A DNA stretch of 64,000 nucleotides, from NCBI GenBank assembly GCA_038087875.1, contig CM075995.1, forward strand, positions 1-64,000, written 5' to 3'. The stretch is from Malacoraja senta (Eukaryota). Made by a program: the position numbers and the translations under genes. The notes beneath the pieces are model-generated. The model saw nothing but the letters and a program-made list of their open reading frames with translations, searched no databases and had not been told where the DNA came from. Positions 23,850 to 33,354 of this stretch are shown piece by piece (the stretch's first letter is position 1; each line of letters starts with the position of its first letter).

Positions 23850-26800
23850 GAGTCATAGAATGATACTGCATAGAAAAAGGTATTTCGGCCTAACTTGCCA
23901 ACACCGGCCAATATGACCCAGCTACACGAGTCCCACCTGCCTGTGTTTGGCCAATATCCCTCTAGACCTGTCCTCTCCATGTACCTGTCTAACTGTTTCT
24001 TAAACGTTGGGATAGTCCCTGCCTCAACTACCTACTGTGGCAACTTGTTCCATACACTCACCACCCTTTGTGTGAAAAAGTTACCCATTAGATTCCTATT
24101 AAATCTATTAAAAATAACATCCTCGTAAATCTTCTCTGTACCCTTTCCAGTTTGACTTTTCCAATAACATGGTGCCCGAACTGAACACAATACACTAAAT
24201 GCAGCCTCACCAACGTCTTATAGAACTGCAGCATGACCTCCCTACTTCTATACTAAATACTCTGATGAAGGCCAATGTGCCAAAAGCCTTTTTGACCACC
24301 CTATCTACCTGCGACTCCACCTTCAAGGAACCATGCACCTGCACTCCTAGATCCGTCTGGTCTACAACACTCCCCAGAGTCCTGCCATTCACTGTGTAGG
24401 TCCAACCCATGTTTGACTTTCCAAAATGCAACACCTTACATCTCTCTGTATTAAATTCCATCAACCATTCCTCAGCCCACCTGCCCAACTGATCAAGATC
24501 CTGCAGCAATTTTTTCAACCATCTTCACCATCTGCAAACTATCTACTTTTGTATCATCTGCAAACTTGCTAACATTGCCATGTTTCTTCTTCTTCTTCTT
24601 AAGCCCTTTGCTCCACTAGGGAGCATAGGCCATTGACAAATGTCCTCCACCTCACTCGGTTATTGGCAATTCTTTCAAGATCTCTCCATTAGAGCCCACT
24701 CTCAGACATTTCTGTCTGGACACCTCTTCTCCAGCTGTTCCTGTGGCAACCTCTTTTCCTTTTTCCTCGGGGTTTCCATTTCAGGGCTTGCTGGGTGATG
24801 TTTGTGGCAAGTTTCCTGAGGGTGCGTCCAATCCAACTCCATTTTCTCCTTCGAATGTGTAAGTTAATGGGCTCCTGGCTTGTTCTTTTCCACAGATCCA
24901 CGTTGCTTACTTTGTCTCTCCACCAGATGTTAAGTATTCTCCTAAGGCATTTGTTAATGAATATTTGCAGCCTGTATGTAGTGTGTTTTATTGTTTTCCA
25001 TGTCTCTGATTCATACAGCATCACCTATTTCACATTTGAGTTAAAGATGTGTATTTTGGTGTTGATTGAGATGTGTTTTGAGCTCCAGATCTTCCTGAGC
25101 ATGTTAAACACCACCCTAGCCTTATTGATTCTACTTTTTATGTCTACCTCTGCCCCTCCGGTGATGTCCACAACACTGCCTATGTATGTGAATGTGTCTA
25201 CCTCCTCTAGAGCAGTGCTGTGCACAAGGATAGGGTTGCTGGTTTTGGAGTGGATCCTCATCACCTGTGTCTTTGCTCTATTGGGTGCAAGACCAAGTTT
25301 TGTTGCAGCTTGTGAGAGTCTATCGGTCATCTCCTGCATTTGTATCTGTGTGTGTGAAAGGAGAGCTATGTCTTCTGCAAAGTCAGATCACCTAGCTGCT
25401 CCCACATTGTCTACTGAATTCCATTTATTTTCCCTTACAATACAATACTGTTTATTGTCATTTGTTGTTTCATTGTCTTTCGTTGTTTCCATCATGATCC
25501 AGTCAATTGCCAGGAGGAACAGGAATGGTGACAATAGACATCCCTGCTTGACGCCCGTCCTGACACTAAAGCTCTGGGAGAGCTGGCCTGCATGCATAAC
25601 TTTGCATGAGGTTTCATCATACGAGTTTTTGATTAAGTTTATGATCTTGGTGGGAATTCCGTAGTGGTCCATTAGGCGCCATAGTGTTGCCCTGTCTAAG
25701 CTGTCAAACGCTTTCTCAAAGTCGATGAAGTTAATGTACACGGACATGTTCCATTCAACAGATTGCTCAATGATGATGCATAATGTTGCTATGTGATCTG
25801 TGCATGAGCGATCCTTCCTGAATCCTGCTTGCTGGTCCCGTAGCCTCTTGTCTACAGCTTCCTGAAGACGGTTGAGGATGAACTGGTTGAGAATTTTACT
25901 GGGTACAGAAAGTAGGGTGATCCCTCGGTAGTTGTCACATTTTCTTAAGTCATCTTTTTTTGGCAGTTTCACAATGTATCCCTCTGCCCATTCTGTGGGT
26001 GTATTTTCCCACAGAAGCCATAGCGCATGTCTGAAGAGGAGTCTATATCTACTTTCAGGGCTTCAGTTGGAATATTGTCAGGGCCAACAGCCTTGCCAGT
26101 TTTCTGTTGGTTGATTGCAGCCTTTATTTCTGATTTTGTTGTCTGTCACATTTAATTTGTAGTGGTATCCTGGCTTTGGGTCTGTATAGCCGGTGGTGGC
26201 CTGTTTAGGACTTCCTCAAAATGTTCTACCTATCTTTCGAGCTGCATCTCCTGGGTTGAAAGCAGTTCTTGTCTGTAATTGGTTTATTACTCTGGAGATA
26301 TGTCCCGGACAATTTCCTTGTGATGGTATATAACTCCCTCATGATCCTTTGGGTCGCCACAATTTCTGCCTCTTTGGCTAGCCTCTCCACCTGTGTTCTC
26401 TTGTCCCTCCTGATGTTCTTTCGCATTTCTTTGTGGCATCTGTTGTACTCCTTTTGGGCTAAAGCCTTTTCAGCCCTTGTTCTTGAGTTGTTCACTTTCT
26501 CCTTTAACTTTTTCCTCTGTTGGATTATGGATTATTATTGCCATGTATGTTCTCATCCAAAACATTGATATAGATAAACAGTAACAGGTCCAGCACCGAA
26601 CCCTGAGGCAACCACCAATCACAGTCCTCCAGTCCAAGGAGCAACCTTCCACCATCACCCTCTGCTTCCTTCCATGAAGCCAATTTTCTATCCATTCAGT
26701 TATCCCACCTTGGATCCCATGCGACCTAACCTGCCAGAGCAGCCTACCAAATGGAACCTTGTTGAATGCTTTGCTTAAGTCCATGTATACAACAATTACA

Positions 26801-26930
26801 GCTCTGCCCTCATCAATCTTTTTGGTCACGTCTTCAAAATCAGATTTGTGAGACACAACCTTCCACATACAAAAACCATGCTGACTATCCCTAATCAGCC
26901 CTTGTCCATATAAATGCATGTATATCTTTG
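23850..26930 (-). mobile_element. CR1 fragment interrupted by an RTE
   Basis: LQDLDQLGRWAEEWLMEFN on the left of the RTE; QHGF..DLSKAFNKVP..WIENWL on the right. Confidence 0.85.
24584..26536 (-). mobile_element. RTE-clade LINE, 5'-truncated, with 10-bp TSD and (AAG)n tail
   Basis: TSD attgccatgt at 24574-24583 and 26537-26546; NYRGITLLS, QAGFR, FIDFEKAFDS, GVKQGCLLSP, RRKWSWIG. Confidence 0.92.
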
Positions 26931-28229
26931 GTATAATCATTGGTGTCTATCGTAGGTATAAACCAATATCTGCAGTCCCAAAGCAGTTTTAAGTGTGGAT
27001 GGAGTCGATGGTGGGGAGTTTGATCTGTGTGACAAACTGGGCTACATCAAGAACTCTGCAATTTCATGCAGTTTTAGGCAGAGCTGTTCTCAAACTAAGC
27101 TGTGGTATAACCCGAGAATATGCTTTCTACAGTGCATCAGTAGAAGTCAGTATGAATTGTCGGGAGACATGCTGAACCTCCTTAGTCTTCTAATGAAGCA
27201 GAGGTGTTGGAAATATTCATTCAGGTTAGCTTATAACAATCCACCATTTATAGATCCACGCTAGCTCTTAATTGACTCAAACCTCTCCAAGTATTAATTG
27301 TTTTATTTTCCTGATTGTCATTCCTATGTATGGAGTTTATACACTGTATGGAGTTATTAGTTTGTAATTATTGTACGCTGTACAGAGTTTGTACGGTCTC
27401 CCTGTGACCGTGTGGGTTTTCTCCAGGCTGCTCCAATTTCAAACACATGCCGTTTTGTAGGTTAATTGGCTTCTGCAAATTGTCCTGAGTGTGTAGGATA
27501 GAACTAGTGTACAGGTGATCGCTGGTAGGCGCGGACTCGGTGGGTCTGTTTCCACACTGTATCTCCAAAACCCTGTCCACCAGTATTACTAAACTAACCT
27601 GTCAGCAGTTATTTGAAGTGTCCGTACTTTTCTTGAACAAATGTGTCATATTTCTCACCTTACAATCTTGAATGAATTAATGATGATGAATGACACGTAC
27701 CTAGGCACAGTGAAATGCTTTGTTTTGCATACAACCCGGTAAAATCGTGCAGCAGACCTCACCTAGGCAGTACACAAGTGTCGCCACGTGTCTGGCACCG
27801 ACAAAGTTACAAGTTCAGGCACCATCTCAGTATCTAAGGAAGTTTGACCTCTCCACGCCAATCTTTCTCAGCAATACAGTACCTGTTTTCATCTGAGAAT
27901 AGTTTTGATTTGCAACTCAATTATACCAAGCAGATTAACCACATATTTAAATATTTTTAATAAGGGCACAATATCACCTAATCTGCATTAACTACATTAG
28001 CTCCGAGTTTTAATTGGAACTTGCAGTGTTTACTTACATTGCCCTCCATAATGTTTGGGACAAAGACTCATCATTTATTCATTTGCCTCTGTACTCCACA
28101 ATTTGAGATTTGTAATAGAAAAAAATCACATGTGGTTAAAGTGCACATTGCCAGATTTTATTAAAGGCCAATTTAAAGATTTTGGTTTCACCATGTTGAA
28201 ATTACAGCAGTGTTTATACATAGTCCATC

Positions 28230-30745
28230 TGTCGTCGTCGTCCAGCTTCTTGGCGTGAGGGCTACGGCATCAGACCGGGGCGCAGTACTCGGCGGCTGAG
28301 AACACCAGGGCCACTGGGGACATGCGCAGTGTCTTCGTCATGGCTCCCCATGTGGTGCCGGCTAGGCGCCGTATCAGTGCGGCACGGGCGCTTGTCTTTG
28401 CCTTGGCACCTTCCAGGTGTTGTTTGAATGACAACGATCTGTTGAGCTTCACACCGAGGTACGTGGGGACAGGCTGGGACCGTAACCGGGCATTATCCAC
28501 CATGACGTTCATCTCGCAGGTCGCTTCCCTGTTGTTGAGGTGGAACATTGAAGATGTTGTCTTACCCATGCTGAGCTTGAGGCGCCAGTTCCTCAGGTAT
28601 GAAGACAGGATGTTCATGTCTTCAGAGAGGCCCTCTTCTACTGCTTCCCAGGAGGGCTTACTGAGTAGGATGGCCAGGTCATCAGCATAGCCATACTTCT
28701 TTGACTGGGTTGCAGGTAGGTCATGGATGTAGATGTTGAACAGCATTGGTGCCAGCACTGAGCCCTGAGGGACGCCGTTCTTAAGTTTCCTCACCCTGCT
28801 GCATTGCCCGTTGCTGGTGTGTAGCCTGAAGCTGCGGTTGCTCAGCATCTCCATGATGAAGCTCATCATGTGCATGTCTGGGATGTTTCCAGAAGCTTCA
28901 TGTGTTGTCCACGCAGCCAGACAGTACCATGTGCAGCTGTGAGGTCCAAGAAGACAGCCCCTGCCTTCTCCCCTGCCTGGAAGCTGTCCTCTATGTCTTG
29001 GCACAGGAGGGTCACCTGGTCCGCCTTTGACCTACCGCTTCGGAAGCCAGCCTGTTCTTTAGGCAGCTGGGGGTCGATCACTGGATTGAGACGTGTGTGG
29101 AGGAGACGTTCCAGGAGCTTATATGGAACACACAGCAGTGAGATGGGTCGGTATCCCTTGGGGTCATCGCTAGGCTTGTTTGGCTTCAGCAGAGCGATCA
29201 TCTTGGCACGGCGCCAGATCTTTGGCTGCTTCAGGCAGCGGAAACACATGGAGGAGTATAGCCAGTCAGTTACCTTCTTGCCTTGGTGTTTTATGTATTC
29301 CGGGTGGATGCCGTCGGTGCCTGGTGCCTTACCGGTTTTCAGCCGTCGGATGGCCTGCTCGATTTCTTGTGTTGTGAAATCGTGGGATAGGTTGGAGTCG
29401 CAGCTCGGGGCCTTGTGTAGCTCGTGGACTCTCGCCAATGTTGTTCTGGTGAAGTCCTTGTCTGCGTTGGGGAAGCAGCCGTTGCTCAGCAGTAGCGATG
29501 CGATGGAATGTGCAGTGATGGGACACTGTGCTGGGGTTGTCGACCTGCCCATCAGCTTGTTCATGGATGGCCACGCCTGATGGCTGGAGTGTGTGAAATC
29601 AATTGATTCCACTGTCTCCATCCATCTTTGCCTGCGTTTCTCATTTAGTCTGCAGATTAGGTCATTCGCTGCTTTGTCCCTGTCTTCGCTGGTTTGTGAT
29701 TCTGTGTGGGCGCGAAGTAGGTCTTCACATTCGTCATCCCAGCAGGGAACATAGGCTTTACGTACACCGCGGGGGATGTTCTTCTTGGCGGCGGCCAGCA
29801 GCATCTTGCAGTACGAGTTGTAGGCATTATTCAGGTTGGTGGGGCGTGGGTGTGGGAGGCCAGCGGCTGCCTTATTCACTTGTTGTGTGAAGCCTACCCA
29901 GTTTGCTTTCCAGAAGTTCCACCTCTTGACGTCTTTCCCTTCCACGGTCTGGACCAGAGATGGAATGGTTATGAGCGATGGTCGTTGGTGTGACCGGGGA
30001 AACCTGTCCAGGATGCGTCTTACTGGGAGCGGTTCGTTGTTGCGACATTTTGCGAAGGCCAGGTCCGGGTTGGTGGTGCTGTTCCAGCGTGCAGAGTAGA
30101 AAGTGCGTGGCTCCTTTGGGTCGTATAGGAGCGTTGCATCGGCGGTCGAGGCCCATTCTGCCAGGAAGTCGCCGTCAGCGTTGGAGCTGCTGTATACCCA
30201 GTCTGTATGATGGCTGTTGAAGTCACCAGCATACACGGCAGGGGCTGGGACATCTGGCAGAGATGTTGGGACCAACCTGCTCGGAGGCGGCTTGTAAATG
30301 TTGACGATGGTAGTGTCTTGCACTTTGGTTGTGATCCATTCTACCTCTGCGGACTGTGCTATGGCTGACCAAGCCATGTCGATTCGAACGAACGTAGCTA
30401 TACCATGATGTTTGTCGGCGGTGTGACCGGCCAGGGTATACCCAGGAAGTTTCAGGAAGTTCTTATTTTCGGTGTGAGTCTCCTGCAGTAGAACTATAGT
30501 CGCCTTGTTTTTGATGGCAATCTGTTCGATGACGTTGAGCTTGGCGGTGGTAAGGGCTTCAACATTGTGCTGCAGTAGTGCTAAACCTCGACAGTTGGCG
30601 GCATTTAACGGTGCCGCCTGGCCTGGGGAGGCATGGCTTTTAGTGGTCTGCAGACGTGGTAAAGACATTGATTTCACTTTGTGGGCTTATGAGCCTGTAA
30701 GCTACTCATGGAGGAGGCCGCGTAGAGGCTGTCTTTGTCTCCCCC
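28230..30745 (-). mobile_element. Vingi/ingi-clade LINE (single ORF, APE and RT), 5'-complete, 3' internally deleted, inserted in Tc1
   Basis: LQHNVEAL, LQETH, AGDFNSHH.DW, PDLAF, FPRSHQRP, YRPISLL, FLDLTAA, GVPQGSVLAP, YADD. One frameshift at about 28885; (GAC)n tail; no ORF1. Confidence 0.85.
30661..30745 (-). ncRNA. HDV-like (nested double pseudoknot) ribozyme at the Vingi 5' end, possibly inactive
   Basis: P1 GGGGGAG/CTCCTCC, P2 AAAGACA/TGTCTTT, P3 GCC/GGC, L3 TCTACGC; G1 is the exact element boundary. Confidence 0.75.
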
Positions 30746-31285
30746 GCTTGAAGTCTGAGATTCATGGACATCACCAGTTGCTGGGTGTCTTCACTGGTGA
30801 TGCTCTGCCAGGCCTGTATTGCAGCCATCTTTAGCTTATGCTTGTTTTGGGGGCTAGTCCCCTTCAGTTTTCTCTTCAACATATAAAAGGCATACTCAAT
30901 TGGGTTTAGATCAGGTGTTTGACTTGGCCACTCAAGAATTTCCCATTTCTTAGCTTTGAAAAACACCTTTGTTGTTTAAGCAGTATGTTTGGGATCATTG
31001 TCTTGCTGTAGAATGAACCACGGGCCAATGAGTTTTGAAGCATTTGTTTGAACTTAAGCAGATAGGATATGTTTATACACTTCAGAATTCATTATGCTAC
31101 TACCATCAGCAGTTGTATCATCAATGACGATAAGTGAGCCAGTACCTTCAGCAGCCATACATGTCCAGGCCATAAACCCCCACCACCGTGTTTCACAGAT
31201 GAGGTGGTATGCTTTGGATCTTGGGCAGTTCCTTCTCTCCTCCATACTTTGCTCTTGCCATCATTCTGATATGTTAATCTTCATC

Positions 31286-31496
31286 TTTGATGTATACAGT
31301 GTCTTGTCTATGGTTTTTGTCTGTTCTTTTGCACTTTGTATTCTTGGTAAGATTTGTGATTTGTGATGTGCTTTATTATTATGATCTGTGTTGTTATTAG
31401 TGTTAATGTGCTAAAGCAGTGTACCATCATGTACCGAACCCAATTACCACCAACCCTGGTCGTGTGGCAAATAAAGTTTCTATTCTATTCTATTCT
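31286..31496 (+). mobile_element. Short LINE 3'-tail insertion in the Tc1 transposase
   Basis: Splits the W-T-D-E region; ends aataaa plus (ttcta)n. Confidence 0.65.
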
Positions 31497-33354
31497 ATCT
31501 GTCCACAAGACCTTTTTCCAGAACTGTGGTTGCTCTTTTAAGTACTTCTTGGCAAACTGTAACCTGACCATCCTATTTTTGCAGCTAACCAGTGGTTTGC
31601 ATCTGGCCGTGCAGCCTCTGTATTTCTGTTCATGAAGTCTTCTGCGGGCAGTGGTCATTGACAAATCCACACCTGACTCCTGAACAGCGTTTCTGATCTG
31701 TCGGACAGGTGTTTGGGGATTTTTCTTTATTGTAGTGAGAATTCTTCTGTCATCAGCTGTGGAGGTCTTCCTTGGCCTGCCAGTCCCTTTGCGATTAGTA
31801 AGCTCACCAGTGCTCTCTTTCTTCTTAATGATGTTCCAAACAGTTGATTTTGGTAAGCCTAAGGTTTGGCTGGTCTCTAACATTCTTGTTTCTCAGTCTC
31901 ATATTGGCTTCTTTGACTTTCATTGGCACAACTTTGTCCTCATGTTGATAAACAGTAATAAAAGTTTCCAAGGGTGATGGAAAGACTGGAGGAAATACTA
32001 GATGCTGAGAGCTCTCTTATACCTGCATTAAGCAAGCAATTAAACACACCTCTAGCAATTACAAACACCTGTGAAGCCATGTGTCCCAAACATTATGGTG
32101 CTCTGAAATGGGGGGACTATGTATAAACATATTTTCTACATGGTGAAACCAACATGCATAAAAACACCCTTTAATAAAATCTGACAATGTGCACTTTAAC
32201 CACGTGTGATTTTTTTTCTATTACAAATCTCAAATTGTGGAGTAAAGAAGCAAATAAATAAATGATGGGTCTTTGTCCCAAACATTATGGAGGGCACTGT
32301 ATTTGCTGCATGGCAATGTCATCCCAGACTAGATTTTCCGGTTCAGCTGCTAAGATGGCAGGACACAATCACAGGATGTCATCTTGTATCTTGGCATCTT
32401 GTCATTTAGCTTCAGTTCTACTGTGGAACAAACATGTAAAGGCAACCCCTATCCCTTGTATTGGAAATCAGCCAGCACAGAACAAGAAGGTACTTCCAAG
32501 TGTCCTGCAACTCTTTCACTGATTTTTCCAACAAAGTTATGCAAGTCCCAGATATACTTTTGTTCATCATGAGATATTAGCACAGTGGCGTAACTGGCAG
32601 AGCCGCTGTCTCACAGCGTCAGAGACCTGGGTTCAATCCTGACCTTGTGTGCAGTTTGTGTGGAGTTTGCTTGTTCTCTGTGACTGCGTGGGTTTCCTCC
32701 GGGTGCTTCCATTTCTTCTCATATCCCAAAGAATTGCATTGTTATGTTTCAGGACATATGACAATAAAACACTCTTGATTGTATCTGCCGCCATCACCAT
32801 TCCTGGCAGCGCATTCCAGGCAACGACCAGCCTCTGTGCAAAATCTTGCCGCACACATCTCCTCTAAACTTTCACCTTAAAGCTATGAATGTTTGATGTG
32901 ATGGAGCTTGATTCGTGAGCCTGTTGTCAGGCAACATATGACCTGCCCATCGAAATTTGAGTAGTGTGACCAGAGCATTGATGTAAGTGAAATTGGCTGA
33001 GGCAGCACAAGTTGGATAATACATGAGCAGTGCTTTGAGGTGCATACTGTAAGCTGCCCATCTTCCAAAGCATACAGGGCAGAGATCACTGTTCTTCCTT
33101 TGGTTCCAGTATTGCTGAGAATCAGAATTCATTTTCAATTGGTGGTGATCACTTTACTTTAGAGATACAGCATGGAAAGACCAGCGATCACCCTGTACAT
33201 TAGCACCATCCTACATGCTAGGGACAATTTACAATTTTTACCAAAGCTAATGAACCTACAAGCCTGTTCGTCTTTGGAGTGTGGGAAGAAACTGGAGCAC
33301 TCTGAGAAAAAAGGGAGAAATTTGCTTATTTAGATAGTGAACATTAATATTTAA

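Follow-up and report, generated by a model that had tools for sequence, protein, structure and literature searches.

An HDV-like ribozyme fold at the 5' end of a Vingi-type LINE, with probable kinship to the mammalian CPEB3 ribozyme

The first 85 bases (minus strand) of a LINE copy in the 64-kb window, by which we mean the whole stretch of DNA that was analysed, are read here as the 5' end of a Vingi-type element with an HDV-like fold. Intact copies would likely cut themselves at their first base (G1), the window copy is probably inactive, and one lineage of such heads likely gave rise to the CPEB3 ribozyme; from sequence comparison we give this reading a probability of about 0.8. What makes the head interesting among HDV-like heads is the start codon in its catalytic strand, together with the kinship of its sister families to CPEB3. 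The window's family also offers a natural U-A variant of P1.1 and a natural C75U control, and Vingi heads would serve as natural outgroups for the CPEB3 ribozyme and give it a concrete origin by retrotransposon insertion.

The LINE copy lies within a Tc1 transposon, with the following layout.

28241-30745, minus strand: LINE copy, the 5' ~2.5 kb of an element of 3.15 kb, with the 3' ~640 nt absent
30661-30745, minus strand: HDV-like double-pseudoknot head, 85 nt, G1 at 30745
between 30746 and 30745, minus strand: cut site predicted from the position of G1 in the fold
28866-30668, minus strand: 600-aa frame with the AP endonuclease and the start of the RT, ending past a frameshift
28270-29031, minus strand: remaining RT in a different frame, from ORF and domain match
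28227-28240, minus strand: junction filler of 14 nt, by eye like the element's tail
30746-32200, minus strand: upstream part of the host Tc1 transposon, with HTH and DDE fragments, its left end not mapped
28035-28226, minus strand: downstream part of the host Tc1, resuming ~101 bp past the insertion point

An earlier note on this DNA had Tc1 sequence resuming directly 5' of G1. This is borne out by uninterrupted Tc1 copies, whose match to the window stops precisely at 30746/30745 and so places the Tc1 end at 30746; four of four empty-site Tc1 copies diverge at the G1 boundary of the LINE. The window copy is without a target-site duplication (TSD) because the 3' part of the element is missing and ~101 bp of Tc1 are deleted at its locus. 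A near-identical duplicate of the locus is present on C954. The host Tc1 transposase is itself broken by an unrelated insertion with a TAGAA repeat (31250-31500, minus strand). Nested pieces of two further LINEs at 24200-26950 (minus strand), presumably RTE-like and CR1-like as judged from their motifs, were used only as tree outgroups.

The 3.15-kb single-ORF APE-RT LINE is of Vingi type, an assignment based on its architecture, a quick tree and one published Vingi 5' end; on these grounds the Vingi label given earlier is retained. Two-ended copies of the window's family (family A) are ~3.15 kb long with a (GAA)n tail, and their one ORF of ~1,025 codons encodes an AP endonuclease, an RT and a C-terminal CCHC motif, in that order. 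By definition, Vingi elements have one ORF, in which the APE precedes the RT and RNase H is absent (PMC13708176), and Vingi-1_Acar and Vingi-2_Gav have the same compact organization (PMC13708176, PMC5786205). A Pfam search at E 0.1 gave no RNase H match in the full-length relatives P0001 (77% identical) and P0003 or in the first 920 aa of family B. The Vingi clade also includes short non-autonomous derivatives (PMC13708176, PMC5786205), as do the elements described here. The RT tree, a quick and unfinished search with long-branch warnings that contains no labelled Vingi or Ingi protein, places an Anolis protein together with families A, B, D, E, G, H and I (SH-aLRT 99) and keeps them separate from the RTE-like and CR1-like fragments. 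The printed 5' end of Vingi-2_Gav is the same kind of head as that of the window's family: by eye, its nt 2-74 (PMC5786205 supplement) closely resemble the sister heads of families B-E, while family A has the fold in common with it but not the sequence. In its available text, PMC5786205 leaves Vingi out of the ribozyme-bearing clades and does not remark on a likeness to CPEB3.

Within the head, the following parts can be assigned.

30739-30745, minus strand: 5' strand of P1, pairing with 30716-30710 through six Watson-Crick pairs and one G-U
between the 5' strands of P1 and P2, minus strand: J1/2, AC in the window sequence
30730-30736, minus strand: 5' strand of P2, pairing with 30667-30661
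30717-30729, minus strand: P3-L3-P3' (30729-30727 pairing with 30719-30717, L3 at 30726-30720), containing U20 and G25
30724 (U22) with 30709 (A37), minus strand: P1.1, one pair, predicted from family and cross-family comparison
30709-30708, minus strand: J1/4, from the window sequence
30672-30707, minus strand: P4 region of 36 nt, a predicted two-step hairpin
30671-30668, minus strand: J4/2, from the window sequence
30671, minus strand: catalytic position (C75 equivalent), T here and C in the family
30666-30668, minus strand: ATG whose A closes J4/2 and whose T and G open P2', preserved in 32/34 copies

The HDV-order fold proposed earlier, with a 7-bp P1, a 7-bp P2 and a 3-bp P3, is found with all its helices in place. 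An HDV descriptor, composed with the target already known and run on both strands, has its sole site in the window here, and only when the catalytic base is left free; in 30 dinucleotide shuffles of the window it has 0 sites on either strand. The descriptor half of the check suggested earlier is thus positive and the Rfam half is not: the bacterial model HDV-F-prausnitzii (RF02682), the only one to match, scores the window copy at 20.1 bits and an intact family copy at 19 bits, under its cut-off of 44. The consensus of this model has UCUaCG in L3 and an A after P1', which is the same U-A arrangement of P1.1. The nested folding energy of the head stands at shuffle level (z -0.98) and is uninformative because the fold is a pseudoknot, and pseudoknots are outside the model. 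At the base of P4, AGUA (30706-30703) and GAA (30675-30673) on the minus strand form what we take, by eye, to be a loop-E or sarcin-ricin-like motif. The alternative of CGAA at 70-73 as J4/2 was ruled out, P2' pairing only after CCAA. In the published HDV descriptor the core comprises U20, G25 and a J4/2 of C-R-R-A (PMC6326823); the heads fit this core in U20, G25 and a J4/2 of C-N-A-A, while family A, with CCAA, lacks C-R-R-A and also lacks the second P1.1 pair.

The ATG at 30668-30666, described earlier as the first of the ORF and located in J4/2-P2', does open the 600-aa frame with its endonuclease and RT domains. It encodes the only Met before residue 98 and is the sole AUG ahead of the endonuclease motifs, the first of which are at residues 32 and 60. 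Since an in-frame stop lies inside P4, 18 nt upstream, and the next Met comes only at residue 98, this is the only AUG giving the whole protein. Close relatives are predicted to start with MSS(P/L)R. Among nine metagenome loci of the related invertebrate families G and H (one of the nine being family I), five have an in-frame ATG in the P4 3' strand; in L076 the AUG follows P2' by 4 nt, and in family B by ~30 nt. Families A, G and H form one clade in the quick tree (SH-aLRT 95). Given this variation in AUG position, the overlap is a lineage trait and not a clade-wide one. The window copy in addition carries an out-of-frame ATG at 30709 (found in 4/34 copies) and an 11-codon out-of-frame upstream ORF inside the head (30709-30674, minus strand), both made by CpG decay.

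An intact head would likely cut the element RNA out of longer transcripts at G1. Cleavage during transcription would leave an uncapped element RNA with a 5'-OH, and the cleaved head would be its entire 5' UTR. Use of the AUG by a ribosome would need P2 to be opened, so that folding and translation would exclude each other, and reverse transcription to the first base of the RNA would renew the head in each new copy. A fuller proposal holds that the Vingi clade starts with an active HDV-like ribozyme, that CPEB3 is a domesticated Vingi 5' end, and that the start codon in the catalytic strand of the window's lineage acts as a switch between self-cleavage and cap-independent translation; we regard this as an even bet. 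The overlap could instead be incidental, with the head cleaving, translation proceeding by ordinary capped scanning and nothing gained from the fold. The differing AUG positions among families agree with this, as does a context (C at -3, U at +4) that is weak by Kozak rules, and we place it a little below an even chance. It is countered by the position of the first usable AUG inside the fold in the window's family and two related ones, and by reports that HDV-like heads of retrotransposons promote translation initiation (Ruminski 2011, as cited in PMC8256844, PMC13725137). The 5' HDV-like ribozymes of R2, RTE and other elements resemble the self-cleaving head proposed here both in being released from co-transcripts by self-cleavage and in their reported role in initiation (Ruminski et al. 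2011, as cited in PMC8256844, PMC13725137, PMC5786205). One run of raw RNA had no reads on family A or family B, and is no measure of expression.

The genome search for family A scored 40 of 216 candidates, with 91-100% identity to the window element. For the head counts, 66 of 70 loci were anchored and reduce to 34 distinct flanks; the four unanchored loci (three with C75 by eye, one without the region) are left out. The head was earlier said to define the exact 5' end of the LINE, and indeed no copy reaches 5' of G1: the 14 non-inverted copies have their first base at G1 (ten copies), +2 (three) or +5 (one), and bases -1 to -12 show no conservation among them. TSDs of 12-13 bp flank seven of eight two-ended copies, and end at -1 in one copy, at -1 with a mismatch (by eye) in one, at -1/+1 in four, so read because the assignment of G1 is ambiguous, and at +3 in one. 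Copies with a 5' inversion, a pattern that we take to be twin priming, account for 20 of the 34 distinct flanks, and all of them extend to G1 or end no more than 9 nt short of it, suggesting that the RNA template likely ended there. The inversion break is often near nt 240 (e.g. in L037, L038 and L044-L050), and likewise in sister families. One inverted copy without the first 8 nt (L029, L030 and 25 further small-contig loci) occurs 27 times with the same flank, and was therefore amplified within a larger repeat.

The catalytic position of the window copy reads T, as noted earlier, and the family retains C: among the 34 distinct-flank copies, position 75 (30671) is C in 30, T in three (including the window copy) and G in one, exact-pattern matches, counting duplicates, show C 132 times and another base 6 times, and contigs from three runs of other samples have C. 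Of the observations that the earlier note would have taken as refuting it, a consensus lacking the catalytic C and copies extending 5' of G1, neither is seen. Other core bases are similarly kept, with U20 in 34/34 copies, G25 in 33/34, and C or T at position 36 in 34/34. A designed HDV ribozyme no longer cleaved once the base corresponding to C75 was changed (PMC6326823), so the window copy, with T at 30671, is probably inactive for cleavage. The earlier description of this copy as possibly dead or a variant applies in both senses, the T being a defect of the copy and the UCU of L3 and A of J1/4 belonging to the P1.1 of the whole family. The letters reported as deviations in L3 and J1/4 are correct, but they are not deviations: U22 in L3 and A37 in J1/4 are each invariant (34/34 copies) and make up the one-pair U-A P1.1 common to the family, in which a second P1.1 pair is absent (C.C or U.C). 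The T at position 38 of the window copy is a CpG decay product of the family's C.

Two subtypes are distinguished, the commoner with G1-U36 and another, including the window copy, with G1-C36. The non-C75 copies (window, L004/L045, L175/L247 and L020/L037) are all in the older C36 subfamily (4/15 versus 0/19; Fisher p 0.029, post hoc). Three of the four have another non-CpG change in common (position 941), and the G1 start is kept in three, while other markers conflict with one single lineage. A cleavage-dead source element may therefore have moved, as judged from these sequences. This bears on the proposal that the 5' end is fixed by a Pol II promoter within the element that starts transcription at +1, with a real ribozyme that only trims read-through and is dispensable for moving, as in Pr77/L1TcRz. 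Such a promoter is compatible with the preferred reading, and we consider it somewhat improbable. It would account for non-C75 copies that are grouped in one subfamily yet have kept the G1 start, and L1Tc has a promoter and a ribozyme within the same 77 nt (PMC3383444); against it, the markers give no clean single lineage for these copies, and in each of the nine families tabulated most copies have the catalytic C, which implies selection for cleavage. L1TcRz/Pr77 (L1Tc, ingi, trypanosomes) is like the window head an HDV-like fold opening an APE-RT LINE, of a sister clade (PMC3185411, PMC3383444, PMC4035085), and like the window's family has a cut predicted 5' of +1, a one-pair P1.1 (PMC3185411) and a TSD of ~12 bp. 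The window element differs from L1Tc/ingi in its animal host, its length of 3.15 kb, its lack of RNase H and its (GAA)n tail, and its family differs from L1TcRz in having the start codon inside J4/2-P2' and in that ribozyme activity is here predicted.

The putative self-cleaving head of the preferred reading is common to the LINE clade, and it is the sister families that resemble the CPEB3 ribozyme. The window's family gave no match to RF00622 at E 10 (cut-off 35 bits) and agrees by eye with the CPEB3 consensus at ~20 of the first 38 positions; it is unlike CPEB3 in its U-A P1.1, longer P4 and CCAA. A genome search with RF00622 gave 39 hits above the cut-off among the 60 matches listed (best 64.2 bits), re-scoring of sister heads put 7/7 above 35 bits, and 0/14 control genomes had a hit above the cut-off. 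The many young Tc1 copies in the searched genome suggest that its owner is not a mammal. Thirty of these loci were fetched, of which 10 are directly followed by an APE-RT ORF, 11 are near an inverted piece of one and 9 have neither. Six of the nine ORF-less loci (L235, L237, L241-L244) belong to a short GAA-tailed non-autonomous family with a 54-nt P4-less HDV-like head, which has the catalytic C in 6/6 copies. Family B, a 3.1-kb, single-ORF, GAA-tailed element with 35% identity to the window's protein, has TSDs ending at -1 in 4/9 copies and at +1 in one.

CPEB3 and the sister heads have in common a 7-bp P1, a 2-nt J1/2, a 7-bp P2 and a 7-nt L3 (RF00622; PMC8233481, PMC4836649), and one P1.1 pair (PMC4836649) with a pyrimidine mismatch. 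Compared by eye, Vingi-2_Gav is identical to the CPEB3 ribozyme at 46/48 non-P4 positions, L218 agrees with the CPEB3 consensus at 40/49 non-P4 positions, and L226 at 53/60 positions including 13/14 P4-stem bases. The CPEB3 ribozyme is a fixed intronic RNA, whereas Vingi-type heads open mobile elements. Stems that vary so freely between families make common descent likelier than convergence, and the direction from LINE to intron is favoured by how widely the head is spread over LINE families and hosts; the mammalian CPEB3 ribozyme thus likely began as a Vingi 5' end inserted into an intron. Convergence, or capture of the sequence by a LINE from the host gene, is unlikely. The HDV core is constrained, which would allow some convergence, but P1, P2 and P4 differ widely among families and the identity of Vingi-2_Gav and L226 extends through just these freely variable stems; the head is carried by many families that have diverged from one another, in hosts both vertebrate and invertebrate, while CPEB3 has been reported only from mammals (PMC8233481). 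The alligator element SINE2-1_AMi (PMC5786205 supplement) has a Vingi-derived middle with a changed L3 and a P4 stem that matches the CPEB3 consensus, which makes a Vingi-derived SINE also a candidate donor.

A link of Vingi to a ribozyme or to CPEB3 was not found in the literature searched, subscription journals, patents, Repbase/Dfam notes and bioRxiv supplements being outside its reach; one text match on CPEB3 and vingi was to 'Tvingi' and was discarded. At L259 (~490-640, oriented; G000:C8:937600-937800), a family B copy stands behind four tandem 26-nt partial copies of the head, which suggests repeated template jumps at the 5' end. An 11-nt duplication in L175 is similar to these partial repeats.

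Covariation was followed in related elements taken from metagenome contigs and from the same genome. Pairs were counted from hand-set anchors, MAFFT having misaligned J4/2 across families, and the register of family J is unsure. In a helix table parsed by hand to the proposed structure, which biases the counts in its favour, 173 of 186 helix cells are paired (11 real copies of 10 families) and 16 of the 17 helix positions have two or more pair types; all seven P2 positions have three pair types each across families. P1.1, which is U-A in the window's family, is C-G in nine copies drawn from eight other families, and on this comparison the U-A pair is a compensatory replacement for C-G. The covariation called for by the earlier note is therefore seen, P1.1 included. 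Chance complementarity in a LINE 5' UTR with no ribozyme, which could draw on the sub-threshold Rfam scores of the window's family and the unremarkable folding z-score, is highly unlikely in view of the descriptor control, the cross-family compensatory pairs including P1.1, and the start at G1.

Among loci from metagenomes or contaminants that include the start of the endonuclease, a first descriptor recovered the head in only 1/28, and a stricter descriptor in 0/12 metagenome or contaminant loci. By eye, heads could still be made out in decayed copies of families G and H, and one G/H-type head scores 25.2 bits with RF00622, under the cut-off. Eukaryotic LINE fragments occur in many prokaryote genome bins (L131-L174), likely as contamination. 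Another repeat family (L280-L284, from position ~1500 of the matched strand), with no Vingi-type protein match within 1.5 kb, has an HDV-like head with UCCCCGU in L3 and CGAA in J4/2 in three of five copies. A distant relative (L076:3859-3927) has a two-pair P1.1 (UCCACGU in L3, GG in J1/4) and a G1-G mismatch.
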